Below are positions 7,645 through 44,432 of a stretch of 64,000 nt of DNA, one piece after another. The notes under the pieces are model-generated. The model was not told the origin of the DNA, ran no database searches, and saw only the letters and a list, made by a program, of their open reading frames with translations. Source of the DNA: Nanobdellota archaeon (GTDB lineage: Archaea; Nanobdellota; Nanobdellia; Parvarchaeales; Parvarchaeaceae); the NCBI GenBank assembly GCA_021818905.1, contig JAKASS010000003.1, positions 10,445 through 74,444 on the forward strand, written 5' to 3'. The translations under genes were made by a program, and so were the position numbers. The stretch's first letter is position 1. Each line of letters begins with the position of its first letter.

Positions 7645-8126
7645 GACGACTTTTCATCGCAATAGAATTAAAACCGGAAATCTCAAATGAGATCTGGACA
7701 TCAATATCTAAGATAAAAGCGAAAGTAAACGGCGCCTTTGTAGAAAAAGAAAAATTGCACATAACACTTCTCTTCCTTGGTGACCCAAAGCTTTCAAATG
7801 GAGACATAATAAACGCAGTAAAGTCACAGACTATAGACCGCGACATCGAAATAAGCGGACTTGATGCTTTTCCTAGCTGGGCTGGGCCAAGGCTACTTTT
7901 TATAGACATTAAGACTAATCTCTCAGATGTTTATCGCGAACTTTGCCAAAAACTTGGCGTTAAAGAAGAAAGGTCTTTTCGCCCGCATATAACGATATGT
8001 AGAATAAAAGGAAATATGGCATCCAAGATGGAGCTGCAGACCAGTTTCTATGTAGACGAAAGATTCAGGGTCAAAAAACTAAGCCTATTCGATAGCGATT
8101 TTAGGAACTATCACCAGCTTTATTAA
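7641..8126 (+). CDS. thpR: 2'-5' RNA ligase / 2',3'-cyclic phosphodiesterase (LigT/ThpR, 2H family)
   Basis: Two H-x-T/S-x motifs are present (HITLLFLG and HITICRI). The start was moved to the Met of MRRLFIAIEL, because the track ORF carries an Arg-rich N-terminal overlap with the upstream gene. Confidence 0.75.
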   Translation: MRRLFIAIELKPEISNEIWTSISKIKAKVNGAFVEKEKLHITLLFLGDPKLSNGDIINAVKSQTIDRDIEISGLDAFPSWAGPRLLFIDIKTNLSDVYRELCQKLGVKEERSFRPHITICRIKGNMASKMELQTSFYVDERFRVKKLSLFDSDFRNYHQLY

Positions 8127-8788
8127 GCGCCTTTTTCTCTGGTCATGAAGTATACTGCAACTGCCATAGCGGCCAAAGTCAAAAGAAGCGACATTACGCT
8201 TGGTGCGGTAAGTATCGAGATTACATACGCACTTGTAATATAATCAAGCGAGTGGTTTACAGTAACGCTACCCGAGCTGCTGTTCGAAGAAGTAGAGTTT
8301 GCGGCAGTGCTGGAGCTACCACAATTGGCTATGCAGGCTGTAGATGCGACCGGCGTAGTGCCAAGCTGTTGGCTTGCGGCGCCATATGCTATCAGGCCGA
8401 ATATAAACATAATGAAGACTATAAGCACTGGAACGAGCGTACTTTTCTTAAGGTATGCACCGACGCTTTCCTGTGGTATCGTTGCTGTGTTAAACAAAAG
8501 CATTATCAGGAACAGAAACACGAGTATGGCAAGAACGTACGGGAGAAAAGCTATTACGAAGTCTACAAAGAAAGCCGATGCAAGCGAAACCAATGCTACT
8601 GCTATAGCTATCAATGCCGGGATATCAGATTTGTCAAAAAATCTAGACCTCGATAATACTGCGTACACCAGTGCGAAGACCAGCACAAATATCACTAAAT
8701 CGTATATACCAAATATCTGTAAACTTAGTGCCATATATATGGTAATTGTTAAATCGTTAATCTTTCGAACCTGCGCTTGAACCGCCAA
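8123..8788 (-). CDS. Hypothetical polytopic membrane protein
   Basis: 221 aa with several hydrophobic helices and a Ser/Thr/Asn-rich loop. Confidence 0.5.
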   Translation of the reverse strand: MAVQAQVRKINDLTITIYMALSLQIFGIYDLVIFVLVFALVYAVLSRSRFFDKSDIPALIAIAVALVSLASAFFVDFVIAFLPYVLAILVFLFLIMLLFNTATIPQESVGAYLKKSTLVPVLIVFIMFIFGLIAYGAASQQLGTTPVASTACIANCGSSSTAANSTSSNSSSGSVTVNHSLDYITSAYVISILTAPSVMSLLLTLAAMAVAVYFMTREKGA

Positions 8789-26292: not shown

Positions 26293-26580
26293 ATGCTGGG
26301 AGCAATCTTAACTGATTCTGCAAGTATACCCAGCACGATAGGGGCCGTTATGACATATCTTACACAGTCCGTTCCAATTGGTGTGATATGCGGTGCGACG
26401 GCGTCTTTAGGGGTTTTGTTTTTTAATGGGGGCGGTGTTATAAACACTCTTGAAAAATATAACAAGGATTACATACGCGAGTGGGTGGCATATTACCAAC
26501 GGGTAAACATAAAAGTAAAGGCTAAAACGGCGATAGCAACTATAACAATTCCCTGGGGGCGAATTAAAAACGACAACTAG
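26293..26580 (+). CDS. Possible small membrane protein (uncertain; it overlaps an antisense ORF)
   Basis: 95 aa and hydrophobic. It lies in a 680-bp intergenic gap, and the reading strand is uncertain. Confidence 0.2.
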   Translation: MLGAILTDSASIPSTIGAVMTYLTQSVPIGVICGATASLGVLFFNGGGVINTLEKYNKDYIREWVAYYQRVNIKVKAKTAIATITIPWGRIKNDN

Positions 26581-26604: not shown

Positions 26605-26910
26605 TTACTCTAAACGCTTGATTATATGATATCCAAACTGCGTTTTTACTATGGGAGAAACTTCTCCCTTATTCAATGCGAACGCTGCCCTCTCAAATTC
26701 TTTTACCATCATCCCTCGACCGAAAAACCCTAGGTCCCCGCCGTGCTTGCTGGACCCGTCTATAGAATATTTTTCGGCGAGCGACGAAAAGCTTTTTCCC
26801 TCCTTTAAAAGACTCATTACTTCTTCAGCCGTTGCCTGGTTTTTTACAAGGATATGCGCGCATCTTATTTTATCTACCATAAGAATTATTGGTTTCCGAT
26901 TATTTAACAA
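26605..26910 (-). CDS. Parvulin-type peptidyl-prolyl cis-trans isomerase
   Basis: 101-aa single-domain Par10-like protein with CAHILV...GGDLGFF...FGYHIIK. Confidence 0.8.
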
Positions 26911-26957
26911 TTAACTTCTAATAAACTATTAATACTGGCTGGAGTCAATTATCTCAA

Positions 26958-27830
26958 ATGAAGCCGCCATCCCAAAGCAATCTGGATAACATAGTCGATA
27001 GTATATACAGAGATAACAGGCCAGAGGTGTCGATAAAATTAAAAGACAACGGCGCAGGTCTCCCTATAGCTTACAACCCTTTCACGAATGCGATTGAAGT
27101 AAGTCCTTCTGTCGTAAGCGCAATCGAAACTGGGCGGGAGAAAGGTAGTCTTCATGCTATATTGCACCTATCCCGGGGCGTAAGGACTTTGATGAATCAC
27201 GAGATAGGACATTATTATCAGGCTCAGACTATAGCAGAATTAATAAAAGACGAACTCGTCCTTAGAGGGAAGTACACGCCAAAAAGAGCCGAGATACTTT
27301 CTAAATTGGGTAAGGGGGACATAAGCGATTATTTGAGATTGCGCCACTTTTTTACGATTTATCCTATCGGTAAGGCATTCCAAAAAGTGTTTGAAAAATA
27401 TATGGATGGGGCAGAGGCAGGAGCTACTTTATACGCATTGAGTCTGAGTAAAAATCCTACGAACGATTATGCATCATCAATAGGCTTAACGGTCGCATAC
27501 CTTGCAATGAAAGGCGGCAAAAAAATGAAGATCCCTGTAAAAGCCTCTGACAACGACATGTCGTCACCTCTAAGCGCATACAGAATAGAATATAAGAACT
27601 GGGCGGAGGCATCCTTAGACGAACGCATAGATTTCCTAGTAGGCCAACTACTTAGGCATCACGGCTCTGACCGTTTTGGCGATGCAAAATTCATTGAAGA
27701 AGCTTCGAAGTTATACTACGGCAAAAAGAAAGATTTTAGCGATGTGGATGTAGATGAAGCCGTAAAGAACGGGAAGCTAGCTGCGAGAAGATTGATAAAA
27801 GAAATGAATTCTTTGGGAATAAAATTCTGA
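26958..27830 (+). CDS. HExxH-motif protein (putative zincin-like metallopeptidase fold)
   Basis: 290 aa with a single HEIGH motif (LMNHEIGHYYQ). It is 10 nt upstream of the ART-like gene on the same strand. Confidence 0.4.
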   Translation: MKPPSQSNLDNIVDSIYRDNRPEVSIKLKDNGAGLPIAYNPFTNAIEVSPSVVSAIETGREKGSLHAILHLSRGVRTLMNHEIGHYYQAQTIAELIKDELVLRGKYTPKRAEILSKLGKGDISDYLRLRHFFTIYPIGKAFQKVFEKYMDGAEAGATLYALSLSKNPTNDYASSIGLTVAYLAMKGGKKMKIPVKASDNDMSSPLSAYRIEYKNWAEASLDERIDFLVGQLLRHHGSDRFGDAKFIEEASKLYYGKKKDFSDVDVDEAVKNGKLAARRLIKEMNSLGIKF

Positions 27831-27840
27831 TTAATAAGAT

Positions 27841-28419
27841 ATGGCGGAAACTAAGCTTAACCAAATAATAGAAATAGAAAAAGGAGAAGAGCTATATCAC
27901 GGTTCTAATGTAAAAAACATCGAGCATTTTTTGCACTCTGAATATGGCTCACTTGGGACTGGTTTCTATATCACAAGAAGCCTTGATAAGGCGAAATACT
28001 ACGCAAAAAAGAAAGCAAAAAATCGTGGCGGGGAACCCGTAGTCTACGCAGCCGAGTCGTCCGGGGCGAAATTCTTTAATCTGGCTTATACTGACGGCAA
28101 AGAAATACTGGTGCATTTTGGTGGATATCTTTTGGAACGCTCAAAAATCGGGCGTGAAAACTGCCGGTCATTGGATAGACGCTACGATGCCGTAATCGTC
28201 GGCGATGAGGTAAATGCTCTATGCGAGTCCCTCGGGAAAGAGATGGTGCAAAATCCATCGAGTTTTCTTATGCTTCTGCCGACATTGACAGATTTCGGAG
28301 AATATAATTTAGCGCTAATCGATTTCTTAAAGAATCGCGGATATGACGGTATGACTCTAGACGAGGATTATGTGCTATTCGATCCCTCTGATTTTAAGCA
28401 CGCACACATTATCAATTGA
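27841..28419 (+). CDS. Putative PARP-like (H-Y-E clade) ADP-ribosyltransferase-fold protein
   Basis: ELYHGSN resembles PARP WHGS. GTGFYITRSLDKAKYYA resembles PARP GKGIYFADMVSKSANY. DEDYVLFD is a candidate catalytic Glu. 192 aa. Confidence 0.35.
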   Translation: MAETKLNQIIEIEKGEELYHGSNVKNIEHFLHSEYGSLGTGFYITRSLDKAKYYAKKKAKNRGGEPVVYAAESSGAKFFNLAYTDGKEILVHFGGYLLERSKIGRENCRSLDRRYDAVIVGDEVNALCESLGKEMVQNPSSFLMLLPTLTDFGEYNLALIDFLKNRGYDGMTLDEDYVLFDPSDFKHAHIIN

Positions 28420-28468
28420 ACGTCTGCGGCAACAAAAAGCTTTTATACTATGTCAATTATATAAATAA

Positions 28469-29101
28469 TTGATTCTGATAAAATCTATGGACTCAGTAAA
28501 GACAGGTACTACGACGTTGGGCTTGATATACAAAGACGGAGTCGTCTTAGCCGCAGATAGAAGGGTTTCCGCCGGGAACTTGGTTTTTGGACACTACGAG
28601 AAAATCGCCAAACTAAGTCCTAGCATGGGTATAACTATGGCGGGCTCGGTGGCTGATGTGCAGACCCTCATAAAGATAATGCAGTCAGAAATAGCGCTTT
28701 ATGAGATCCGTTCTGGAAATAGGATGACTACAAAGGCCGCGGTCGGATTATTTGCTACCATACTTTTTAATAACAGGTTCTCGCTCATAGGCAGCGGCTT
28801 CATAGTCGGCGGCTATGACACAAAACCAGAAATTTTCAGTTTAGAGACTGCGGGTTCTAAATTACCGGATAAGTATGCATCTATAGGAAGCGGAAGCGTT
28901 GTCGCTCTTGGTGTATTAGAGGCCGAATACAAAGACGACATGCAAGAAGATGATGCGATAAAACTTGCCCACAGGTCGATTTCTACAGCGATAAAAAGAG
29001 ACGTTTATACAGGCGATGGCGTCGATATAGTATTAGTAGACAAAAAAGGTTACAGGAAATTATCCGATGCCGAAGTAAGCAGAGCCCTTGCTTCTAAGTA
29101 A
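28469..29101 (+). CDS. psmB: Proteasome beta subunit
   Basis: A propeptide is followed by TTTLGLIYKDGVVLAADRR (Thr1 active site). Confidence 0.9.
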   Translation: MILIKSMDSVKTGTTTLGLIYKDGVVLAADRRVSAGNLVFGHYEKIAKLSPSMGITMAGSVADVQTLIKIMQSEIALYEIRSGNRMTTKAAVGLFATILFNNRFSLIGSGFIVGGYDTKPEIFSLETAGSKLPDKYASIGSGSVVALGVLEAEYKDDMQEDDAIKLAHRSISTAIKRDVYTGDGVDIVLVDKKGYRKLSDAEVSRALASK

Positions 29102-34841: not shown

Positions 34842-34921
34842 ATATTTAATCCAAAAATATTATGTTTATCGAAAACATCAACTTTTGTTGCGTCTAGTCT
34901 TTTAGTCATCATAGACAATCA

Positions 34922-35467
34922 CTATAGCTTCGTAGCATCAGAAAGCTTTACCCTCACCCTTTCCGACATATCATTGGTGCTAACATAAGCAAGCACATCG
35001 ATATCTGGGTCATAAAGCTCAACCATATCAAGATCAGTTCGATCCATTATCCTCGCTCCTTTCACCTTCCTTCCGTCTTTTAGAGATTGTTTAAGCGCTG
35101 CGTATTTCTTTGGTTCTAGATAAAAGTCCACATCTCCAACATGATGACGATATGGGTCTGGTCTTCTTATGTAAAGATAAGCGTAAGTCGTTTCTGGCAC
35201 ATCACCACTAGCAGGAATGACTATTGGTTCATATAAGTGGAAGTATTTTTGGTTAAGATTATAAGATGGTTCTGTTAGTGCTTTTCTAAGTTTGATAAGT
35301 GCATCATATTCATTATCGTAGTGGCAAAAAATTCCCATATTCCCTGCGTTTTTAAGATATCGGCCAAATGACTGTTTACAAAGTTTGTGACACTCGAAAT
35401 GAACGTGCTCTATAGCTTTGAACAATTTATCTTTATTAGTTATAGGGCTGAATCTATACAATTTCAT
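34922..35467 (-). CDS. Hypothetical protein
   Basis: 181-aa ORF with no recognizable motif. Confidence 0.4.
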   Translation of the reverse strand: MKLYRFSPITNKDKLFKAIEHVHFECHKLCKQSFGRYLKNAGNMGIFCHYDNEYDALIKLRKALTEPSYNLNQKYFHLYEPIVIPASGDVPETTYAYLYIRRPDPYRHHVGDVDFYLEPKKYAALKQSLKDGRKVKGARIMDRTDLDMVELYDPDIDVLAYVSTNDMSERVRVKLSDATKL

Positions 35468-35613
35468 TTAATCACTTCCTTATTACACTAAATTAGTGCC
35501 ACTACTTCTGATGCGTTGCATCATCATAGAGACAGCTCTAGTCGGAGTCTTGAGAGTTGTTATCACCATACTTAGTTAAACAGAAGGGCCGTTAAATAGG
35601 TTTCCTCGAATGG

Positions 35614-35722
35614 TACGCGTGTGCATAAGTGCTTTATAGAATGGCTGCTTCTGCAAGGATATGACGTCTAATATCGCTAAAATAAAGTCGTATGGTAGTG
35701 GAGGCGACTTTACACAAGCCTG
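35614..35722 (+). repeat. Solo copy of the left end of the IS5-family element (TIR plus about 95 nt of 5' leader), with no transposase
   Basis: About 85-90% identical to 5428-5530 (…gtgcataagtgctttatag…ctgcttctgcaaggatatg.cgtctaatatcgctaaaa…). It lies upstream of the mazE-like gene on the same strand. Confidence 0.6.
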
Positions 35723-35782
35723 GGTGCCTACTTATGAACATTAAGTTTATATAGTGTATTATACATTAACTATATGTAAACT

Positions 35783-36013
35783 ATGGTAAAGGAGATCAGC
35801 ACGATACAGTTAGATAAGTCTGTCATATCGGATTTAAAGAAACTTAAAAGATCGCCCAGGGAGACGTACGTAGAATTGATAAGATACTTGATTACTCTAG
35901 CTAAAAGAGACGACCTAAAGAACCAATACGATGAATTTTTACACAAGACCCAGCAAAAAAAGATGAAAGAATTATGGGACAACAAAGAAGATGAGAAGTG
36001 GGAAAATGTTTGA
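35783..36013 (+). CDS. Putative antitoxin partnered with the MazF-like toxin
   Basis: 76-aa charged protein. Its stop overlaps the toxin start by 23 nt. Confidence 0.5.
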   Translation: MVKEISTIQLDKSVISDLKKLKRSPRETYVELIRYLITLAKRDDLKNQYDEFLHKTQQKKMKELWDNKEDEKWENV

Positions 36014-36320
36014 CCCCGGTGATGTAGTTATAACCGAGGTGCAGTTTACAGATACGTTTGAAATAAAAAGACGCCCCGCACTTGTCCTGTTCGAAGAATT
36101 TGATAATGTAGTGATAGCCGGGATAACCAGTAATACTGGCATGGAAGGAGTCTCTATATCTAAAAAGGACGGTGCTGTCAAGGATAGCGTGATAAAGTTA
36201 AATTATATTTTTACCGTTTCAACAAAAATGATTGAAAGGAAACTTTTCACATTAAACAAAGAGAAAAAGAGATTGGTCTTTCAAGAACTTACAAAACGCT
36301 TGAGCCCGCTTAACAGTTAA
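35991..36320 (+). CDS. mazF: MazF/PemK-family endoribonuclease toxin
   Basis: FDPGDVVITEVQFTDTFEIKRRPALVL... is a PemK-like N-terminal signature. 109 aa. Confidence 0.7.
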   Translation: MRSGKMFDPGDVVITEVQFTDTFEIKRRPALVLFEEFDNVVIAGITSNTGMEGVSISKKDGAVKDSVIKLNYIFTVSTKMIERKLFTLNKEKKRLVFQELTKRLSPLNS

Positions 36321-36327
36321 ATCGCAT

Positions 36328-36372
36328 TCTGTGGAGCAGATTGCCCAAAAATCGCTTTCGGAACTACTGGGA
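36328..36372 (+). repeat. Left copy of a 45-46 nt direct repeat, a candidate att-like boundary
   Basis: tctgtgGagcagattgcccaaaaatcGctttcggaactactggga, compared with the copy at 42705-42750, has 2 mismatches and 1 indel. It is immediately followed by a CTTTCGGA/TCCGAAAG hairpin. Confidence 0.6.
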
Positions 36373-36442
36373 ATCAGTACCTCCGAAAGTGAAAAATAAC
36401 AAACTTCTAACATATAAATAGTATTACCTACATTTAAACAAA

Positions 36443-36712
36443 ATGCAAGGAAAACATAAAAATCATAACTTGGTAAGGTTCGCTTGGCTTCTAATTGGAA
36501 TCGGCGCACTGATAGTTATACTGGATATCATTGGTCCTAGTGGTGGTTGCGCTGTGGGATTGCCGATTTTTCCAATAAATGCGACAAGCACCACAGGTTC
36601 TCAATGTGCGTCTTTAGCGGTAAATTATAATCCATATAATTGGTTTTTAGGTCTTGGGTTTGCGCTCATTATTATTGGTGCTGCAATAGAGATTGTTCTC
36701 TATTACCAATAA
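36443..36712 (+). CDS. Small membrane protein
   Basis: 89 aa with two TM helices. Its stop abuts the end of the IS4-family transposase. Confidence 0.4.
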   Translation: MQGKHKNHNLVRFAWLLIGIGALIVILDIIGPSGGCAVGLPIFPINATSTTGSQCASLAVNYNPYNWFLGLGFALIIIGAAIEIVLYYQ

Positions 36713-36714
36713 AG

Positions 36715-38247
36715 TTATCCGTCTGGATTCTTAGTAGCTAAAAGTCTGATAGAAAACATTCTAGCGGTTATCATCGTCTTAGTCGTCCTTATGCCTAAAA
36801 ATGCCATAATTAGTAGGTCCACCAATATCCAACAGTTGTATAATATTACTGAAAGCATAAAGTAGAAGTATCTTATAATATAGTTTATCGATGTCGTCTT
36901 GCCCCTGAAATTATACTTCTTTACACGATATCCTGTCTCAATCTGCCAACGCCTTCTGTACATATCCGCGATTTTCTGCGCAAAAAGGATGTCCTGCGGA
37001 CCTATGTCGATGTTAGTTGCAAATCCTTGTCTGCCTCGGTCGCCTTCTATGACCGCCAAGTTGAACTTGCAATCTCCCATAACTGCATTTCTTTGTATAA
37101 ATGGCGTGACTCTGGTCTTACTGTTCTTCATTGCATTATTGCTTTCCTTCATCGGCATTATAAACTTTACGTCTAGTTTGTTTAGTCTTCTTATGCACTC
37201 AGACCCTAGAAAACCTCTATCAAGAAGTATTGTACCTATATGGATTCTTTCTTTTGCAAACGACACTAATCTTTCGACTAAATCATTCTAATCGTCTTGT
37301 GGAAAGACTGGCAGGGCGAATAAAGTTAACCTTTGACCATGATTTACTATGTCAATTGTGATGAACTTGAAACACCATTTCGTGCCTCTTTCTGGTTTGG
37401 TGCCGATGATTGCTGGATGTTCGGGATTTCCGTAGAAGAACCAGGGTGTTGCGTCTATTGCTAAATCTAGTTTACGGCCCAGAATCGAGCCGCCTTTCTT
37501 AGCCATTTTGAAGACCATGTCAAACAGATCATAGAATATCCTTTGTATTTCTCCGTAATCGAACTTCTTAAGGTGGTAGAATAGCGTGTCTGCGGATGGC
37601 ATTCTTTTTGACGATGTTTCCGCCAATATCTTTGATCCGCCTTCTGCGAAGTTTTGAGTTGCTGCGATGTTTATAAGCAAACCAAGAAAATCATCTTCTT
37701 TAAAGACGGAGTTTTGCTTAATGTTAAAACTTAGTTTTTGTCTGAGTTTTGTCCTGACTAACCTGAGTAGTTCTTTTTCCTTAACATTCTTGTTTTGTAT
37801 TACGGAGTTCTCTTTGCGCAGTTCCTTTGACTTATTTTCTAAAGAAACGTCATCGAATATGATGTTAAATTTATTTGTAAGTTCTTTTATTATTGCTATA
37901 ACTTGATTAGCTAACTCTAAGATTTCTGGGTTTAGTGTAAAAATAAAGTGTGAAAAATCTCGTCGCATTGGTAAAATTACTTTATCGGCATCTTTGTCGA
38001 AACCAATGTTTATTGCATCTTCAAGATGACCATTTAGATAAACTATCAGTTTTCTCTGCGACTTAATCCCTTTAATTATCATAAAAATGTAAGCTTTGAT
38101 CAGCGAATCGGAAGAATATTTTCGCTTTGAGGATATTTTCGGTAATAAGTCAATTTGTTTTAAAATGTCGGATAACAGAAACATTTTGGATTTGGAACTA
38201 ACAAAAATCGAACGAATTTTACGCATTAACTCGTTATTTTCTTTCAT
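36715..38247 (-). mobile_element. IS4/ISH3-family transposase gene split by a frameshift at about 37266-37288 (pseudogene or programmed frameshift)
   Basis: The N-terminal ORF (37288-38247) carries LAIDATPWFF (first D). The C-terminal ORF (36715-37266) carries LLDRGF (second D) and the RWQIETGYR E-motif. The two frames are adjacent. Confidence 0.65.
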
Positions 38248-38333
38248 ACAAGTGATTTACTTACAAGTCATTCACTTATATTATAAAAACGAAAAATATA
38301 TAAGCTTTTCGCTTGTAAGTTAATAAGTGTGAT

Positions 38334-38591
38334 ATGGTGAAGTATATCCCAAAATGGTTAATAAAACGTCTAAGTAAATTATGGGCAGCGTATAAAGAAA
38401 AGGAATTTACTTTTGAGGAGGCAACAAAGGCGCTGCCTGAAGACGACCCTAGAAACTTAGCTATGGTGCTTTCTGACTTAAATAAAAGTGGGTGGATAGA
38501 AACCAAACAAGATCCAAAAAATAAGAGGAAGACCCTTTACAAAATAAAGCAAGGTTCTATCGTAAATGAGCTTATAAAAATAGAGCTTTAA
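38334..38591 (+). CDS. Small winged-helix-like protein (possible regulator of the downstream helicase-nuclease)
   Basis: 85 aa. It lies 69 nt upstream of the 958-aa gene on the same strand. Confidence 0.4.
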   Translation: MVKYIPKWLIKRLSKLWAAYKEKEFTFEEATKALPEDDPRNLAMVLSDLNKSGWIETKQDPKNKRKTLYKIKQGSIVNELIKIEL

Positions 38592-38660
38592 TTATCGTTT
38601 TAAAGCAGATGAAATTTGAAACTAAAATTAGTATTATATTAGCTTTAACTTAAGTAACTT

Positions 38661-41537
38661 ATGGGTTACTATAGCGATTCAGAATTAATTAGAAAGCTAA
38701 AGGTAAGACAACATAAAAATTATATTTCTACAAAGGAACATAAATTTGAGGGAATTTTATTTAAAAAACGGATCACTAACCCAGACGACTTGCCTGCCGA
38801 AATAAGAAAAATGGATACATTTAATAAAATACGCAATTTTTTCCCGATACAGATTAAAGCATTCGACGCCGGAATTTTAAATCACAGAAATTTAGTACTT
38901 TGCGCACCGACTGGTATGGGAAAAACTCTACCAATAGACATTTCAGCTATTAAGACCGTTGTTGATGGTCATAAAAAAGTAATATTTTTAGAACCTTATC
39001 TCGCAATAACGAACCAAAAGGTAGGAACGTTAGCTAATGAAACTTTAAATATAATTCCTGGACAATTTACTGGAGAAACGAATGATAATCCTTCTAGATC
39101 AAATATAATTTACGCCACCGCTGAAAAACTGTTTCTAGCGATACAAAATAGAGAAATCTGGTTAAATGATGTTGGTTTACTAGTTGTTGATGAATGTGAC
39201 ATTCTGAATGATATTAACCGGGGCGCAATTCTAGAAGAAGTAATTAGTTGCTTTATAACTCTATACAAAGATGCACAGATTGTGATGTTGTCGGCGACAT
39301 TATCTAATGGAGAAGATTTGGCCAAATGGATTGGGGGAACATACATAAGTGATAATACGCGTAATGTTAAGATAAAATACGAACTTTATCCGACATTTGA
39401 TTTCACTGTAGAAGAATTAAAAAAGATTGAAGAGCAAGAAAATCAAATCTTTATCACATTAGAAAATCCGATAAAACCGCTAGAAAATAAAAACCCGTCT
39501 GAAAATGAGATATTAGTTGCCACCTCCACTAGAAAGGAGGCAAAAAAACTATGTTGGAAATTACTAAAATCTAGAGGTACTCACTCATCTACTCAAGACC
39601 TTGGTAGATATTTAAGTGAATTAGGAAAAAAAATAAAAAGGGAAGCAAAGTATGGGATGGATAAGATTTCTAAGATGGTGTCTATAACCGTTCATGCTGA
39701 AGTTGCAGTTCATAACGCGGGTTTAACAAGAAAGCAAAGAACTTTAATAGAAAGCGCATTCGAAGAAAAACTTATAAAAATATTAGTATGTACCCCAACT
39801 CTAAATAGAGGAATTAATTTGCAGCTTAAAAAACTTATTTTATACAATGGAATAAAAAAAGCGGAGGGATTGATGACTGTATCAGAATTCCATCAGCTAT
39901 GTGGGCGTGTTGGGAGACCTGGTCAAGAAAACGTGGGTGAGGTTATAATATGTTGCAATAGCTTTGAGGAGATGGTCGTTGCGAAGGAGAAAATAATGGG
40001 ACGATATGAACTCGTTGAATCCAAATTAAAACCGCACATCGCAAGTTTTATTATTCTTCTTGTAGGTGCGGGATACTCTCTCAAGATAATAAGCCAAATT
40101 TTAATGAATACTCTATTCGCTTCTATGAATTTTGAGTCACCCATAGTTAAAGATTTTAATGAAGCGGCTTTGCTGTCTACTATAAAAAGTGCGCCAACAA
40201 TTTTCGATTTAATAAATGAAACGCCAAAATTAACAAAATTCGGGGAACTATGTTTTAGGTATAGTGGCTACGAACTAAAGGATATAAAAGAACTATGTAA
40301 GTCAATAACTAAGAAAGCAAAGGATGAGACACTGAATAAAAGTGATTTAATTGAGCTAATAAACACTTTGATTTCTAAAAGAAAAAGTCAACATGCGGAA
40401 TGGACTTTGCTTCTAAATGCTTGGTTAAGTGGTGATAAAAATGTTCCTAAGCCTCTAGAAACTGAAAAAACGGATTTTGGAACGAAAGACTTTAAAGAGT
40501 TTAAAAAACGATCTAAAAATATAAGTAATCTAATTTGTTCACTTATAGAATATAATGACATTGATAAATCTTCAATTTTTTGGATATTCGGATTACCAAA
40601 TTGCATTGAATTCGGGCTGGACCCTATTAAATACGGAGAGTTAGCCGCGATATCGAATAATAGAAAGCAGGCATGTTTACTTACAGAGGGTTTTGATGGC
40701 AGCATAAAAATAGCGAGCGAAAAAACGCTTAATGAATACAGAGAGATATTAGGACATAACTCATTTGCATCTTCTATGGGTATACTTAAAAAATTAAATA
40801 AAATATTAGGAAAACCGGAGCGAGTGAGCGTCGGCGAAGCAGTTAATTTTATTCATTGTCCGTTGTCGTTTTTATTAGACTATTATTACAGCTTAAAGAA
40901 TATGGAAATGCTAGAGAAAGATATACAAGAAAAAACAGAAATTGGGGGAAATGTACATAAATATATACATAAGTTCTGTGAATATTGGAATCACGTAGGA
41001 ACGATAGTAAAGGCAAAAGGGCTTACATTAGACTTAATTGGAAGAGATTCTCCTAATAATATTGACGAAATAACCTCTGCTTTTAATAATTTCTGTAATT
41101 TTTTACTATCAAATAATTTTAAAGCTGCGAACTCCTCTGAAAAAGTTATAGAAAGTAAAAAATTGGAAATTCAAGGCATATTAGATTTAGTGCTTTTGGA
41201 TTATAATAATTATTTAACATTAATAGAAATAAAATCTGGCGACTTTCAGGAATACAGATATGAACAATGGGACCAAAATCAAATTTATTTGTATTATCTT
41301 ATTTTAAGAGACTGCGACATAGATATAAAAGATGCCTTTGTTTTATATTTAAAACCTCTAACTGCGTCATATGTTGATTTAAGCGAAGAAAAATTACGAA
41401 AAATTTCTTCTTATATAGGAGCGATGCGTAATTTAATGAGTCGCGTGGACGCACTTAAAGATGAGAATCTAAGAGGACTTTGTACTTGCAGAAACTCTTC
41501 TCATAAATGCGTATGCAATCAACTTTTTGATGAATAA
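38661..41537 (+). CDS. Ski2/Hel308-like SF2 helicase fused to a C-terminal Cas4/RecB-type Fe-S PD-(D/E)xK nuclease
   Basis: Helicase motifs: Q motif FPIQ, I APTGMGKT (aa 82-89), II DECD (177-180), III SAT (211-213), IVa HNAGL (351-355), VI QLCGRVGRPG (412-421). Nuclease motifs: CPLSF (Cys733), D842/D847...E856-I-K858, Q-x3-Y (872-878), and a terminal C-x-C-x6-C-x-C (941-952). Confidence 0.7.
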   Translation: MGYYSDSELIRKLKVRQHKNYISTKEHKFEGILFKKRITNPDDLPAEIRKMDTFNKIRNFFPIQIKAFDAGILNHRNLVLCAPTGMGKTLPIDISAIKTVVDGHKKVIFLEPYLAITNQKVGTLANETLNIIPGQFTGETNDNPSRSNIIYATAEKLFLAIQNREIWLNDVGLLVVDECDILNDINRGAILEEVISCFITLYKDAQIVMLSATLSNGEDLAKWIGGTYISDNTRNVKIKYELYPTFDFTVEELKKIEEQENQIFITLENPIKPLENKNPSENEILVATSTRKEAKKLCWKLLKSRGTHSSTQDLGRYLSELGKKIKREAKYGMDKISKMVSITVHAEVAVHNAGLTRKQRTLIESAFEEKLIKILVCTPTLNRGINLQLKKLILYNGIKKAEGLMTVSEFHQLCGRVGRPGQENVGEVIICCNSFEEMVVAKEKIMGRYELVESKLKPHIASFIILLVGAGYSLKIISQILMNTLFASMNFESPIVKDFNEAALLSTIKSAPTIFDLINETPKLTKFGELCFRYSGYELKDIKELCKSITKKAKDETLNKSDLIELINTLISKRKSQHAEWTLLLNAWLSGDKNVPKPLETEKTDFGTKDFKEFKKRSKNISNLICSLIEYNDIDKSSIFWIFGLPNCIEFGLDPIKYGELAAISNNRKQACLLTEGFDGSIKIASEKTLNEYREILGHNSFASSMGILKKLNKILGKPERVSVGEAVNFIHCPLSFLLDYYYSLKNMEMLEKDIQEKTEIGGNVHKYIHKFCEYWNHVGTIVKAKGLTLDLIGRDSPNNIDEITSAFNNFCNFLLSNNFKAANSSEKVIESKKLEIQGILDLVLLDYNNYLTLIEIKSGDFQEYRYEQWDQNQIYLYYLILRDCDIDIKDAFVLYLKPLTASYVDLSEEKLRKISSYIGAMRNLMSRVDALKDENLRGLCTCRNSSHKCVCNQLFDE

Positions 41538-41587
41538 ATCTTATATTATTTAATTTTAATGCCAACGCTCTCTGGTCCAATTATTAT

Positions 41588-41617
41588 CTGAGCACAGAAT
41601 TAACACATGGTGCTCAG
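41588..41617. terminator. Hairpin between convergent genes (candidate bidirectional terminator)
   Basis: CTGAGCAC-14 nt-GTGCTCAG with T-rich flanks, between the helicase-nuclease (+) and the multi-HTH gene (-). Confidence 0.35.
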
Positions 41618-42582
41618 TTTTCATAGGTTCTCCTATTTTTTAGCGCCATTTGTATTTCGCTTATTTTTCGCTTACTAAAACCATTAGGTTGTTTGATATC
41701 CAAGAAAGCTTTTATAGCAACTGCTTCTTTTCCTGGAAGACAGTAAATTGCCACCTTGCCGATTATTACTGATTTAATGAGTGCATTTTTCCCTATTCGC
41801 TTGAATATCATTATATTTTTGCGGTTAGATATTACATACCCTCTGTTTATCAGATTGCACAGGATTTGAAAATAAACTCCGCCTATCCTACTGTGTTTTC
41901 CTTTTAAGTCAGACGTCCACCTGACTATTGTCGGATAGCTCACTTTTAGCATGTTAGATAGTTCAGTCTTCTGAACACCGCTCTTTATCAGCCGTCTTAC
42001 CTTTTTCTTAAACTTGTCTGGATACCTTTTGAGTTCTGGCGCGCGGTTTAGCCACTTGTTAAGGGTTTTTAGGTTTATTCCTAGCTCCGCTGCGGTCTTA
42101 AGTCTGGACTTTCCTGAAGCGACTAAATCTAGCGCTTTTTTTCTAAATTCGTCCGTATAGATTACTTGCTTGTTTGATATCGGTATGTTCCATCTGTTTA
42201 TAGTGCTTATCGCTATTCCAAGACGCCCAGCCGTTTCGGTCCTGCTGAGCCCAGAAGAAAGCATTTCTACGGCTCTTTGTTTTACGCTTTCTGGTAACCT
42301 GTGATAGGTTGAAATGCCATAAAGCCATTTTGCAAGAGTTCCGTACGGGATGCCAAGTTCCGCTGATATTTTGTATCTCGACTTGCCTTCTAAAGCAAGG
42401 GCTTTAGCTTTCTCTTTTACCTCTTGCGGATAAATTCGTGCGTTAATACTTGGTATCTGCCAAGTACTTAACGTGCCTAGGGGTACACCTAATTGCAGAG
42501 CAGTAGCATATTTTGTCATTCCTGACGTTATAAGTTCCTTTGCTTTGCTTCTGATATCGTCGGGATACTTGCTTCCTTTCAT
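41614..42582 (-). CDS. Protein with five tandem about 45-aa helix-turn-helix repeats and a C-terminal domain of unknown function
   Basis: The repeats follow the pattern x.K.KA.EL..SG.S....A..LGI...TL..W (transposase-type HTH). No DDE, tyrosine-recombinase or serine-recombinase catalytic motifs were seen. The gene is next to the att-like repeat and tRNA-Leu. Confidence 0.5.
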   Translation of the reverse strand: MKGSKYPDDIRSKAKELITSGMTKYATALQLGVPLGTLSTWQIPSINARIYPQEVKEKAKALALEGKSRYKISAELGIPYGTLAKWLYGISTYHRLPESVKQRAVEMLSSGLSRTETAGRLGIAISTINRWNIPISNKQVIYTDEFRKKALDLVASGKSRLKTAAELGINLKTLNKWLNRAPELKRYPDKFKKKVRRLIKSGVQKTELSNMLKVSYPTIVRWTSDLKGKHSRIGGVYFQILCNLINRGYVISNRKNIMIFKRIGKNALIKSVIIGKVAIYCLPGKEAVAIKAFLDIKQPNGFSKRKISEIQMALKNRRTYEN

Positions 42583-42704
42583 AGTATTTCATGAAAACGC
42601 ATATTAAAACCGTCTTCGGTCGTTGCCCAAAACAGGCTATTTTTAGAGGGAGCTTTTTGCGAACCGATTTTCAGAAATGGGCACTGGCGGGCAATCAGTA
42701 ACGT

Positions 42705-42750
42705 TCTGTGAAGCAGATTGCCCAAAAATCACTTTCGGAACTACTGGGGA
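42705..42750 (+). repeat. Right copy of the 45-46 nt direct repeat, abutting the 3' end of tRNA-Leu
   Basis: tctgtgAagcagattgcccaaaaatcActttcggaactactgggga. It ends 1 nt before the tRNA discriminator base. Confidence 0.6.
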
Positions 42751-42751
42751 A

Positions 42752-42836
42752 TGCAGGGAGAGGGATTTGAACCCTCGAAGGCCTAAGCCACTAGCCCCTG
42801 AAGCTAGCACGTTTGACCGGGCTTCGCTATCCCTGC
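42752..42836 (-). tRNA. tRNA-Leu(CAG), class II with a long variable arm; CCA is not encoded
   Basis: Cloverleaf folded by hand. Acceptor stem GCAGGGA/UCCCUGC. Anticodon stem CUAGC/GCUAG around the loop UUCAGGG. T arm GAGGG-UUCAAAU-CCCUC. 85 nt. Confidence 0.75.
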
Positions 42837-42880
42837 GCCGTATTATATCTTTACCTCTATGCGGATTAAGAAGATGATTT

Positions 42881-43279
42881 TTATTTGTACCCTAACGTAT
42901 TTTTTACAGTTATTACGAACTCTTCGGCGTTCTTCAAAGTGTTTTCTACGGCTACTTTATCAGGTTCTATTGTCACATCATATGTACTAGCTTGTCTTAT
43001 AGCCAATGCGCGATTCAAATATCTAGAAAATTTCTTTTCTAATTTTCCCGTTTTTATGTAATAGTTACTGAAAGAGGCTACAACGCCTCGGTGCGTTTTT
43101 GGAGGCCTTATTCTTGCGCTTATTAGCGCTGCGGTGGCGGAATAGAACATTGCATAATAAGCCAGGCTTGCGGCCGGTCTAAGCAGTGAGTTCTCAAAAT
43201 TAAGATAGGACTCCTCGAGTGTCTTATCCGCTAGTTTTACGTAGCTTTCCAGTAAGCTTTTCGAATACACTTCTTCCAT
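42881..43279 (-). CDS. HEPN-domain protein (toxin half of a HEPN-MNT pair)
   Basis: 132-aa alpha-helical protein whose reading frame overlaps the upstream MNT gene. Confidence 0.55.
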   Translation of the reverse strand: MEEVYSKSLLESYVKLADKTLEESYLNFENSLLRPAASLAYYAMFYSATAALISARIRPPKTHRGVVASFSNYYIKTGKLEKKFSRYLNRALAIRQASTYDVTIEPDKVAVENTLKNAEEFVITVKNTLGYK

Positions 43280-43721
43280 AAAGTCCTATTGCGTCTTCAC
43301 TAACATTTCTTATAAACGGTGTGCCTAGCATCACCGATTTCCTCAAAGTTTCTGGCGTTACAAAAAATAAAGATATAAAAAACGCGAAATCGTTCTCCAA
43401 TTCGAAGTCTACCAAGGTGTCATATGCCCTAGACGTGAAATTTAGGTCATTAGCATATTTAGTTAAGACCATGATGTCTATGTCGCTGCTTCTTTTGGCA
43501 TGGCCTCTCGAAACAGAGCCATAGAGCACTATTGCGTCTATCTTTTTGCCAAATTTCAAAGATAGTCGCCCCGCAAATTCTTGCGCTACCCTTCTATATT
43601 CTAAGCTGATGGTCTTTGCCATATTTTTCATTGGGTGCTTAAACAATTTAAGCTTTTTAGATTTTAGAAGGCGCATTCTAATTGCTGTGAAGCCTAAGCC
43701 ACTGGCCCCTGAAGCTAGCAC
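43224..43721 (-). CDS. Minimal nucleotidyltransferase (MNT antitoxin-like)
   Basis: GSVSRGHAKRSSDIDI matches the GS-x9-13-D-x-D motif of pol-beta-superfamily NTases. The true start is probably an internal Met (MKNMAK). Confidence 0.65.
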   Translation of the reverse strand: MLASGASGLGFTAIRMRLLKSKKLKLFKHPMKNMAKTISLEYRRVAQEFAGRLSLKFGKKIDAIVLYGSVSRGHAKRSSDIDIMVLTKYANDLNFTSRAYDTLVDFELENDFAFFISLFFVTPETLRKSVMLGTPFIRNVSEDAIGLYGRSVFEKLTGKLRKTSG

Positions 43722-43747
43722 ATTTGACCGGGCTTCGCTATCCCTGC
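43692..43747 (-). repeat. Degenerate duplicate of the 5' half of tRNA-Leu, in direct orientation to the intact gene
   Basis: 56 nt with 2 mismatches relative to 42781-42836 (tRNA positions 1 to about 56). The mismatches break the anticodon and D stems. Confidence 0.7.
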
Positions 43748-43804
43748 ATGTATCTAAATAGGTTGTAATGAATTTATTTAAAGCCTCTGCGGATAAAATA
43801 TACC

Positions 43805-44224
43805 ATGAAAGTTTTGTTTATCTGCAAATACAATGCTGGCAGGAGCAGGATGGCGGAAGCATTTTTCAATGAATTTTCAAAGGAAAATACTGCCCTGAGT
43901 CGGGGGATAGAGCCCTATCCTGATTCGCCATCGGCTGAGCGTGGACTTAAAGGGACGATAGAAGTGATGAAGGAGGTCGGCATAAAAATCCCATATAAAC
44001 CCGGAAGTCCAGTTACAAAAGAAGACGTCGAAGAAGCCAATCTAGTGGTAGTCTTATTGGACGAGAAACAACGGAATATCCTGCCCGAGTACATAACAAA
44101 TTCTCCAAAGACGAGATACGACGGCGTAGTCGATTCCGACTCGAGGAGCGCAGATTTCCTAGACCAGCATAGGGCAAACAGGGATAAAATCCAAAAAATC
44201 GTCTTAAACCTGCTTAAACAATAG
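43805..44224 (+). CDS. Low-molecular-weight phosphotyrosine phosphatase / ArsC-family protein
   Basis: CX5R(S) P-loop VLFICKYNAGRSRMAEAFF. 139 aa. The downstream ArsC cysteines are absent. Confidence 0.6.
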   Translation: MKVLFICKYNAGRSRMAEAFFNEFSKENTALSRGIEPYPDSPSAERGLKGTIEVMKEVGIKIPYKPGSPVTKEDVEEANLVVVLLDEKQRNILPEYITNSPKTRYDGVVDSDSRSADFLDQHRANRDKIQKIVLNLLKQ

Positions 44225-44303
44225 AACGGACACGCACCAATATTTCTTTCTAGAAGACTTTTTCGTCTGGGAAAGTCGTGAAGGGGGGTACTTTGCCAGA
44301 TAT

Positions 44304-44320
44304 TACGCTTGTGCATAACT
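44304..44320 (+). repeat. Short solo copy of the IS5-element terminal repeat
   Basis: tacgcttgtgcataact, about 110 nt upstream of the RHH gene. Confidence 0.45.
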
Positions 44321-44432
44321 CCATTAAATAAGCCTAACTTCGTCTGACTTGCTTTGGACTTTCTTTCCTGCTGCGCCCAGCCGGAGAAGAAAAAAGTATT
44401 TATACTATGATTATTCTTAATTATCTATAATT

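Follow-up and report, generated by a model that had tools for sequence, protein, structure and literature searches.

A probable stand-alone ART-PolyVal/DUF3990-like ADP-ribosyltransferase encoded next to an orphan HExxH protein in Parvarchaeota

ADP-ribosyltransferases (ARTs) of the ART-PolyVal family are recognized by a histidine in strand 1, a tyrosine in strand 2 and an aspartate in strand 5, and they have been placed together with Tox-ART-HYD2 (Iyer et al. 2017, PMC5512222), whose signature includes a 'GFY' element (Zhang et al. 2012, PMC3482391). Metallopeptidase (MPTase) plus ART is the commonest domain combination in the polyvalent effectors of phages and plasmids, and archaea have been reported to be poor in polyvalent proteins (PMC5512222). 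DUF3990, a family of the ART clan, forms the C-terminal tip of Rhs5 of Serratia (PMC4524185). The ART-PolyVal/DUF3990 branch is large and is known from computational prediction only, so far in bacterial phage, plasmid and toxin contexts. Here, we examined a two-gene locus in a stretch of 64,000 nucleotides (the window) from the genome of a Nanobdellota archaeon of the Parvarchaeales (contig JAKASS010000003.1). Both open reading frames (ORFs) of a preliminary description, coding for proteins of 290 and 192 amino acids (aa) and separated by a gap of 10 nt, were found on the forward strand as described, at 26958..27830 and 27841..28419, respectively. The 192-aa protein is very probably a divergent stand-alone member of the ART-PolyVal/DUF3990 (Tox-ART-HYD2) branch of the H-Y-[ED] ART superfamily, lying below the Pfam thresholds, while the 290-aa protein carries a HEIGH motif and is a putative small zincin-like metallohydrolase.

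The placement of the 192-aa protein in the same branch as ART-PolyVal comes from reciprocal profile searches and from the predicted fold. Pfam DUF3990 (PF13151) gave the best single match (E 4.5e-7, 30.1 bits against a cut-off of 32.2), with residues 18–88 of the protein aligned to model positions 3–75 of 152. ART-PolyVal (PF18760) was matched at E 3.9e-6 over residues 18–60 (28.1 bits against a gathering threshold of 31.2), and the precomputed PF18760 matches of two orthologues, P0001 and P0002, are graded 'weak'. The PARP family (PF00644) was found below its cut-off (E 0.055, 13.4 bits against 26.7), and the Pfam models of Tpt1 and DarT gave no match to the 192-aa protein even at E<=10. The preliminary description had spoken of an ART of the PARP, Tpt1 and DarT type; its H-Y-E layout stands, but the family has to be replaced by the ART-PolyVal/DUF3990 branch. 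Outside Pfam, the N-terminal segment was matched by PHROG 4700 (E 2.4e-7) and by the candidate models PDC-M13B and PDC-M13A of PADLOC-DB v2 (8e-7 and 1.4e-6, respectively), which are unvalidated and cover residues 18–72 only.

An exhaustive HMMER search of 1.84 billion representative sequences, using a profile of three sequences, retrieved 85 proteins at E<=1e-3, with E-values down to 1e-11. The aligned subset of these relatives, an alignment of 53 sequences (A3), was the basis of the conservation counts, of the AlphaFold2 (AF2) model and of the profile search of the PDB reported below. PF18760 was passed by 46 of the 53 sequences (best E 6.5e-22), whereas DUF3990 was matched by 28 and PARP by six. 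The long multidomain relatives are true multi-copy ART proteins of the polyvalent type, with up to six copies of PF18760. The clade profile also retrieved, at 2.7e-6, a genuine member of the PARP family (P0025; Pfam PARP, 1.9e-27); as an intermediate to the solved PARPs, this protein gave no match in a phmmer search of the PDB and was linked only to the Pfam PARP model. Searched against the PDB, the 53-sequence profile produced weak matches (E 0.016–1), almost all of them to H-Y-E ARTs: PARP4, the tankyrases, PARP16, diphtheria toxin and a PE-like toxin. In a neighbour-joining tree, the Parvarchaeota ARTs form an isolated clade on a long branch, for which no robust sister group was found. The orthologues of the 192-aa protein come from a handful of assemblies and make up three clusters (90% identity) among 5.8 billion proteins.

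The residues expected of an ART were then located, all on the forward strand. In H-Y-E ARTs, the region of the motif I histidine contacts the ribose and amide of nicotinamide adenine dinucleotide (NAD+). In the 192-aa protein, motif I is H20-G21-S22 at the end of strand 1 (27898..27906), with H in 50, G in 53 and S or T in 49 of the 53 sequences. Motif II, G39-x-G41-F-Y43 in strand 2 (the 'GFY'), is followed by a helix that carries Y54-A55 (27955..28005); G39, G41 and Y43 are each conserved in 52/53 sequences, A51 and Y54 in 51/53. Motif III, D174-E175-D176-Y-V-L-F-D-P, covers a tight turn and strand 5 (28360..28386), with E175 and D176 as the acid candidates and with E or D in column 175 in 46 of the 53 sequences. 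The strings quoted in the preliminary description all occur in the protein: ELYHGS at residues 17–22, GTGFYITRSLDKAKYYA at residues 39–55 and DEDYVLFD at residues 174–181, although 16 residues and not 18 separate ELYHGS from the GTGFY motif. In the alignment of the clade, the catalytic positions belong to the best-conserved windows. Since the pattern of H, GFY (here within 'GTGFYIT') and strand-5 acid is the same, the protein fits the published family, with which it also shares the '[YF]-V-[IV]-F-D-P' strand.

The region before strand 5 is where the protein departs from its relatives. Most of these carry a loop of 16–20 residues, 'EGGE...G.H[DE]', between the 'GYDG' strand and '[ST]-Y-V-I-F-D-P', which in the Parvarchaeota proteins is reduced to the turn D-E-D. 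In the canonical polyvalent copies, the acid immediately precedes the aromatic residue (E-[YFIV]-V-V-F, PARP-like) or stands two residues before it (D-S-[YW]). The window protein is acidic at both positions, -1 and -2, so that the choice between E175 and D176 is ambiguous and the triad is complete in either register. Read in this way, the predicted NAD+-site signature is complete, comprising H20-G-S, G-F-Y43, Y54 and the acidic E175/D176.

The structure was predicted with AF2. With the 53-sequence alignment, a model with a mean pLDDT of 83.7 and a pTM of 0.80 was obtained, in which strands (9–22, 41–45, 67–80, 170–173, 176–179 and 189–191) and helices (including 48–62) follow each other in the ART order; the motif-bearing segments have a pLDDT above 90. 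By contrast, the model made from the three orthologues alone was unusable (pLDDT 48). The N-terminal half of the predicted ART core is separated from the C-terminal one by a helical insert of residues 87–165 (28099..28335, forward strand), modelled as helices 87–100, 121–137, 139–151 and 153–164 with a pLDDT of 57–84. The canonical polyvalent ART domains, of 140 residues, are without this insert and match only profile positions of about 25–92 and about 150–196. Foldseek searches with the model found 19 matches in BFVD at E<=1e-3 (probability 1.0), several of them named ART-PolyVal or PolyVal ADP-ribosyltransferase. In the PDB, a single match was significant (9k3a_B, E 2.8e-5), ahead of a weak tail of Arr-2, PARP1/2 and PltA (pertussis-like toxins).

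The idea that the motifs are fortuitous and that the 192-aa protein is unrelated to ARTs is effectively refuted by these data. Its scores under the Pfam gathering thresholds and the poor first AF2 model might be taken in favour of chance, but the E-values reach 1e-11, the 85 matches are overwhelmingly ART-PolyVal members, the model from the deeper alignment is confident and has significant structural matches, and the motif positions are conserved family-wide. The claim of an H-Y-E-type ART in the preliminary description is thus borne out by profile homology, by the conservation of the very residues it had picked and by structure prediction. A non-ART fold or unconserved motif residues, which it had named as contrary signs, were looked for and neither was found, so that the ART reading survives.

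A comparison with solved enzymes of the superfamily points in the same direction. In the profile alignment, the HGS, the G-x-G-x-Y and the second tyrosine of the 192-aa protein are in register with those of PARP4 (HGS; GSGIYFS...KYS). More broadly, HGS, G-x-[FI]-Y and the second tyrosine on the next helix align with PARP4 and tankyrase among the PARP/diphtheria-toxin-like enzymes, and motif III resembles the PARP 'E-Y-I-V-Y-D'. However, the window protein is without the accessory domains of PARPs, its helical insert lies elsewhere and its structural matches to solved PARPs are weak. The significant PDB match, 9k3a_B, is the ejection protein gp27 of cyanophage A4, the sole solved protein found with a significant match, and the family profile aligns with its residues 1417–1604. 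It differs in being a phage structural/ejection protein of 1717 residues, with 15% identity. The publication of the A4 structure makes no mention of ADP-ribosylation or of an ART domain. Given the significant match, the alignment of the profile across the whole domain and the silence of that publication on ARTs, gp27 may carry, at residues of about 1417–1604, an unannotated domain of the ART-PolyVal type that would be packaged in the virion.

Whether the 192-aa protein is a transferase was considered as well. It could have kept the ART fold and be an NAD+ glycohydrolase, or a protein that has lost catalysis and serves in the binding of NAD or ADP-ribose or in scaffolding. NADases of the ART superfamily are known (PMC9503650), the pre-strand-5 loop, which is equated with the acceptor-side loop by position only, is deleted, some near relatives are without the acid (P0009, 'FGRTYIIFNP') and an orthologue on contig L003 has the substitution Y54H. 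Against this, the protein of the window retains H20, G21, S22, Y43, Y54 and two adjacent acids, a pattern typical of active enzymes, and we regard a non-transferase derivative as very unlikely.

We then turned to the 290-aa protein, for which HEIGH (residues 81–85) is the sole motif, in agreement with the preliminary description. Its codons, at 27198..27212 on the forward strand, lie within an invariant run of 14 residues, NHEIGHYYQAQTIA, which is the longest of the alignment of this protein (A2); the best window of 21 columns has 20 invariant ones. In a protein of 290 aa of this composition, the chance expectation of HExxH is 0.0038, and the motif was found in one of 50 long ORFs of the window. 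Downstream of HEIGH, D98, E99 and E112 are invariant, and E99, E112 and D98 are candidate third ligands. The protein is soluble and basic (pI 9.2), with no hydrophobic segment. As the HExxH lies within the most conserved block, a small zincin-type metallohydrolase is plausible.

The 290-aa protein is clade-restricted: it makes up three clusters (90% identity) among 5.8 billion proteins, even when a profile was used at E<=10. No family was matched in Pfam, NCBIfam, PADLOC or PHROGs, and sequence and profile searches of the PDB, with the whole protein and with its halves, found no match. Negative results were also obtained by tblastn against phages and by the scans of IMG/VR and of the JGI metagenomes. 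The sole trace of a zincin was Peptidase_M48, at E 0.064, in one of the three orthologues. We also considered a detached MPTase of a polyvalent protein, a candidate that was rejected: among 87 ART relatives, giant polyvalent proteins included, none had a region resembling the 290-aa protein. The sole HExxH region among the ART relatives (HEMAH) was compared by hhalign, which gave a probability of 3% and aligned only the motif.

The two genes probably form a unit of their own. The 10-nt spacer (27831..27840) is ATTAATAAGAT following the TGA stop, its length is identical in a related contig (L002), and no separate TATA-like element was seen in it, which implies co-transcription of the 290-aa and 192-aa genes. 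A TATA-box-like sequence, CTATTAATA, is located at 26926..26934 on the forward strand and ends 24 nt before the ATG of the 290-aa gene, as the putative promoter of the two-gene unit. It is kept at equal distance upstream of the orthologous 290-aa gene in L002 and in another contig (L004), and its position implies a short leader or none. The gene of the proteasome beta subunit (PsmB), downstream, has its own promoter-like block, AAAGCTTTT(T)ATACT, which is conserved in the window, L002, L003 and L004 and is kept whichever of the two genes precedes PsmB. Since CTATTAATA stands upstream of the pair and PsmB has a separate conserved block, the pair would be an own, probably bicistronic, unit.

Outside this unit, a parvulin-type peptidyl-prolyl isomerase is encoded upstream on the reverse strand (26605..26910), divergently from the pair, and PsmB downstream on the forward strand (28436..29101, ATG at 28487). 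These annotations, Pfam Rotamase families and Pfam Proteasome, were read on L001, a public contig identical to the window, and agree with the parvulin and proteasome flanks of the preliminary description; Pfam annotation was read on L002 as well. On L001 and L002, the gene of aCPSF1 is next after proteasome beta, and a diphthamide synthase gene is also in the neighbourhood. The GC content of both genes (0.42) equals the average of the window and of the genome, and no mobility genes are present within about 6 kb on either side of the pair. A related Parvarchaeota contig shows 75–82% nucleotide identity to the window and an identical gene order.

Overall, the order parvulin, 290-aa gene, 192-aa gene, PsmB and aCPSF1 is found in the window and in L002, L005 and L006, the last three with an added NUDIX gene, and this synteny holds across saturated synonymous divergence. 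The ratios of nonsynonymous (dN) to synonymous (dS) substitution, estimated according to Nei-Gojobori, were 0.07–0.11 for the 290-aa gene and 0.10–0.11 for the 192-aa gene, while the neighbouring proteasome gene gave 0.035. Purifying selection acts on both genes of the pair, whose dN is 2–4 times that of the proteasome gene.

The pair is not inseparable. L003, the most divergent contig by PsmB distance, has only the ART gene (630–1226) upstream of PsmB, with 65% identity and with an ABC ATPase gene beyond. This solo ART has Y54H and Y53R and has kept H20, Y43 and E175/D176; it could be an attenuated enzyme in a genome without the HExxH partner. In L004, in turn, the 290-aa gene stands without the ART, with about 95 nt behind it, and is still under selection (dN/dS 0.07). 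No remnants of the missing gene were found in L003 or L004. Because the outgroup has the ART, L004 has lost it and has kept the orphan under selection. Moreover, no HExxH-type partner is present at nine loci of distant ART relatives. With an ART-only locus in L003, a HExxH-only locus in L004 and no partner at the distant loci, an obligate toxin/immunity module is not supported.

These observations bear on the toxin or defence module, with a second enzyme or immunity protein as partner, that the preliminary description had proposed. In such a toxin–antitoxin (TA) system, the ART would be a growth-arresting toxin and the HExxH protein an enzymatic antitoxin or immunity protein that cleaves, neutralizes or reverses it, in an operon activated by infection or stress. 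With a putative antidote in first and a toxin in second position, a gap of 10 nt and one promoter, the locus fits the layout of type II/VII TA operons; the Tox-ART-HYD2 clade has been described with toxins of polymorphic-toxin and TA systems (PMC5512222, PMC3482391), and DUF3990 is known as an Rhs toxin tip (PMC4524185). The weak N-terminal matches to PADLOC PDC-M13A/B (about 1e-6), the Y54H of the solo ART in L003, as a possible attenuation, and the orphan antidote of L004, compatible with the decay of a TA system, could be read in the same sense. However, the partner is a member of no family of antitoxins, immunity proteins or defence proteins and is limited to three clusters world-wide; the ART persists alone in L003 under constraint and the partner alone in L004 at a dN/dS of 0.07; and no partner of this kind stands beside the nine other ART relatives. 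The closest other archaeal relatives are alone between tRNA synthetase genes, the locus is syntenic, of genome-typical GC and without mobility genes, and the PADLOC models are unvalidated candidates that match residues 18–72 only. We therefore consider a TA or defence system unlikely. The module proposed in the preliminary description is not supported: its partner is an orphan, its genes are separable and unpaired at nine distant loci, and the setting of the pair in conserved core-gene synteny with genome-typical GC weakens it further.

DarT-DarG and other ART TA systems resemble the locus in that a small ART shares an operon of two genes with a further putative enzyme, but the partner of the window is without a macrodomain, a known antitoxin or any Pfam domain, and the pairing is not obligate in relatives. 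Compared to the DUF3990 tip of Rhs5, the window ART has no Rhs or type VI secretion system context and no small downstream immunity gene. The likeness to the ART-PolyVal systems extends to the association with a protein carrying an MPTase motif, as in many polyvalent proteins (PMC5512222). The differences are that the ART is here a solo archaeal gene of 192 aa in a housekeeping context, and not a domain of a giant protein delivered by virions or by a type IV secretion system; that it has an 80-residue helical insert, is without the pre-strand-5 loop and scores below the family cut-off; and that the partner is a separate gene in which no homology to the polyvalent MPTases can be detected.

Among the relatives that are not orthologues, the nearest, P0008 and P0009, are encoded by solo genes of 180–184 aa between those of the alanyl- and isoleucyl-tRNA synthetases (AlaRS and IleRS), with the TATA-binding protein gene downstream. 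Solo genes of this type are located at L009 1225–1779, L011 4669–5211 and L012 178–720, in a second archaeal lineage. It should be noted that P0009 is without the strand-5 acid ('FGRTYIIFNP'), and since this acid is missing, the protein may be inactive.

Members of the NUDIX family include ADP-ribose pyrophosphatases. A 157-aa NUDIX gene is located, divergently, between parvulin and the pair in L002 (3472–3945), L005 (4609–5082) and L006 (518–991), and a link to ADP-ribose metabolism is conceivable but unsupported. The gene is absent from the pair locus of the window and from the whole 64 kb.

Another explanation would make the ART an endogenous regulatory enzyme that modifies a core component of translation, proteostasis or RNA, with the HExxH protein in the same pathway. 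The stable vertical inheritance near proteasome beta, aCPSF1 and diphthamide synthase, and near AlaRS/IleRS in the second archaeal lineage, argues for it, as do the purifying selection on both genes and the divergent NUDIX neighbour in L002, L005 and L006. However, with three clusters the distribution is a very narrow one; L004, a close relative, has lost the ART and nothing has taken its place; the window has no NUDIX neighbour; and dN is 2–4 times that of the adjacent proteasome gene. Moreover, the neighbours differ between lineages, so there is no consistent functional link, and adjacency carries little information because small DPANN genomes pack unrelated genes tightly. Overall, this explanation appears quite unlikely. 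A functional link of the pair to one of its neighbours (diphthamide synthase, proteasome beta or NUDIX) was itself rejected as unsupported, since the conserved promoters of the pair and of PsmB are separate, NUDIX is absent in the window and other neighbours are found in the second archaeal lineage.

Taken as a whole, the reading that we favour, with a probability somewhat above even, is that of an ART-PolyVal/DUF3990 enzyme as a domesticated remnant of conflict, with the HExxH partner as an accessory or independent enzyme. The 192-aa protein would bind NAD+, with the histidine and the two tyrosines positioning ribose and nicotinamide, as expected from the family. With the oxocarbenium-like transition state stabilized by the acid E175/D176, one ADP-ribose unit would be passed to a macromolecular target, probably a protein. 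Given the loss of the pre-strand-5 loop and the gain of the 80-residue helical insert, the choice of target is probably its own. The ART gene has long been resident in the chromosomes of a small clade of Parvarchaeota (DPANN) and is inherited vertically; in three genomes it would be co-transcribed behind a clade-specific orphan that is most simply a small zinc metallohydrolase. The cassette could be a captured and domesticated remnant of the polyvalent conflict repertoire of phages or plasmids, as the pairing of a metallopeptidase with an ART mirrors, by analogy, the commonest domain combination of polyvalent effectors. The HExxH partner would then be an accessory or independent enzyme and not an obligate antidote.

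Several points weigh against this favoured reading. The 192-aa protein falls under both Pfam gathering thresholds, with only its N-terminal half aligned, and without the pre-strand-5 loop the activity could be weakened or altered. No similarity of the 290-aa protein to any zincin or polyvalent MPTase domain is detectable, so the origin of the pair as a split polyvalent module is argued by analogy only. No relatives of the 192-aa protein were found in IMG/VR, so that a viral source stays putative. The searchable literature holds no experimental report on any member of ART-PolyVal/DUF3990, so that ART activity and target are here predictions.

We also envisaged a more far-reaching form, in which a long-domesticated ART of episymbiotic DPANN archaea, derived from the ARTs of phage polyvalent effectors, modifies one of the archaeon's own core components or else a host-cell protein, the HExxH protein being a new zincin family dedicated to this ART. 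We find it highly doubtful. If true, and together with the solo lineage between AlaRS and IleRS, it would amount to an unrecognized endogenous ADP-ribosylation function in archaea.

As to the meaning of these findings, the locus adds a new, divergent archaeal member to a known family; a categorically new system is not indicated, and the practical significance is modest. The framing as toxin or defence is not borne out by the comparative data. A selected and vertically inherited solo copy in a reduced genome shows that the family reaches DPANN archaea, with a second archaeal lineage having a similar solo gene. The soluble, 22-kDa protein of 192 aa is a compact and tractable candidate for the first biochemical characterization of the family, and the 290-aa protein, a true orphan, would define a new small family if it is a zincin.

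Other features of the window and of the related contigs were recorded. Upstream of parvulin, a 95-aa ORF (window 26293–26580; L001 7749–8036) has no Pfam match and a hydrophobic N-terminal half, and the sister genomes differ at this position. Compared to the colinear contig L002, the window has an insertion of ~9.5 kb at 34875–44390, with a low GC content (0.32–0.33 at 38–42 kb). It contains a split DDE transposase (36715–38247, reverse strand), a 958-aa fusion of a DEAD-box helicase with a PD-(D/E)XK nuclease (38661–41537), a 322-aa protein with multiple helix-turn-helix domains (41614–42582, reverse strand), a tRNA (42752–42836) and a HEPN-domain protein (42881–43279, reverse strand). The insertion, which has no relation to the 290-aa/192-aa pair, resembles an islet of the mobile or defence type. 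In L011, the solo ART relative is preceded, at a distance of a few kb, by a HEPN/Abi_C and NTP_transf_2 pair of the HepT/MntA toxin–antitoxin type (94–1070). Finally, L003 has a 287-aa gene resembling LAGLIDADG homing endonucleases (7709–8572) between PAPS-reductase-like and EF-1alpha genes, which is absent at this place in L002 and L005.

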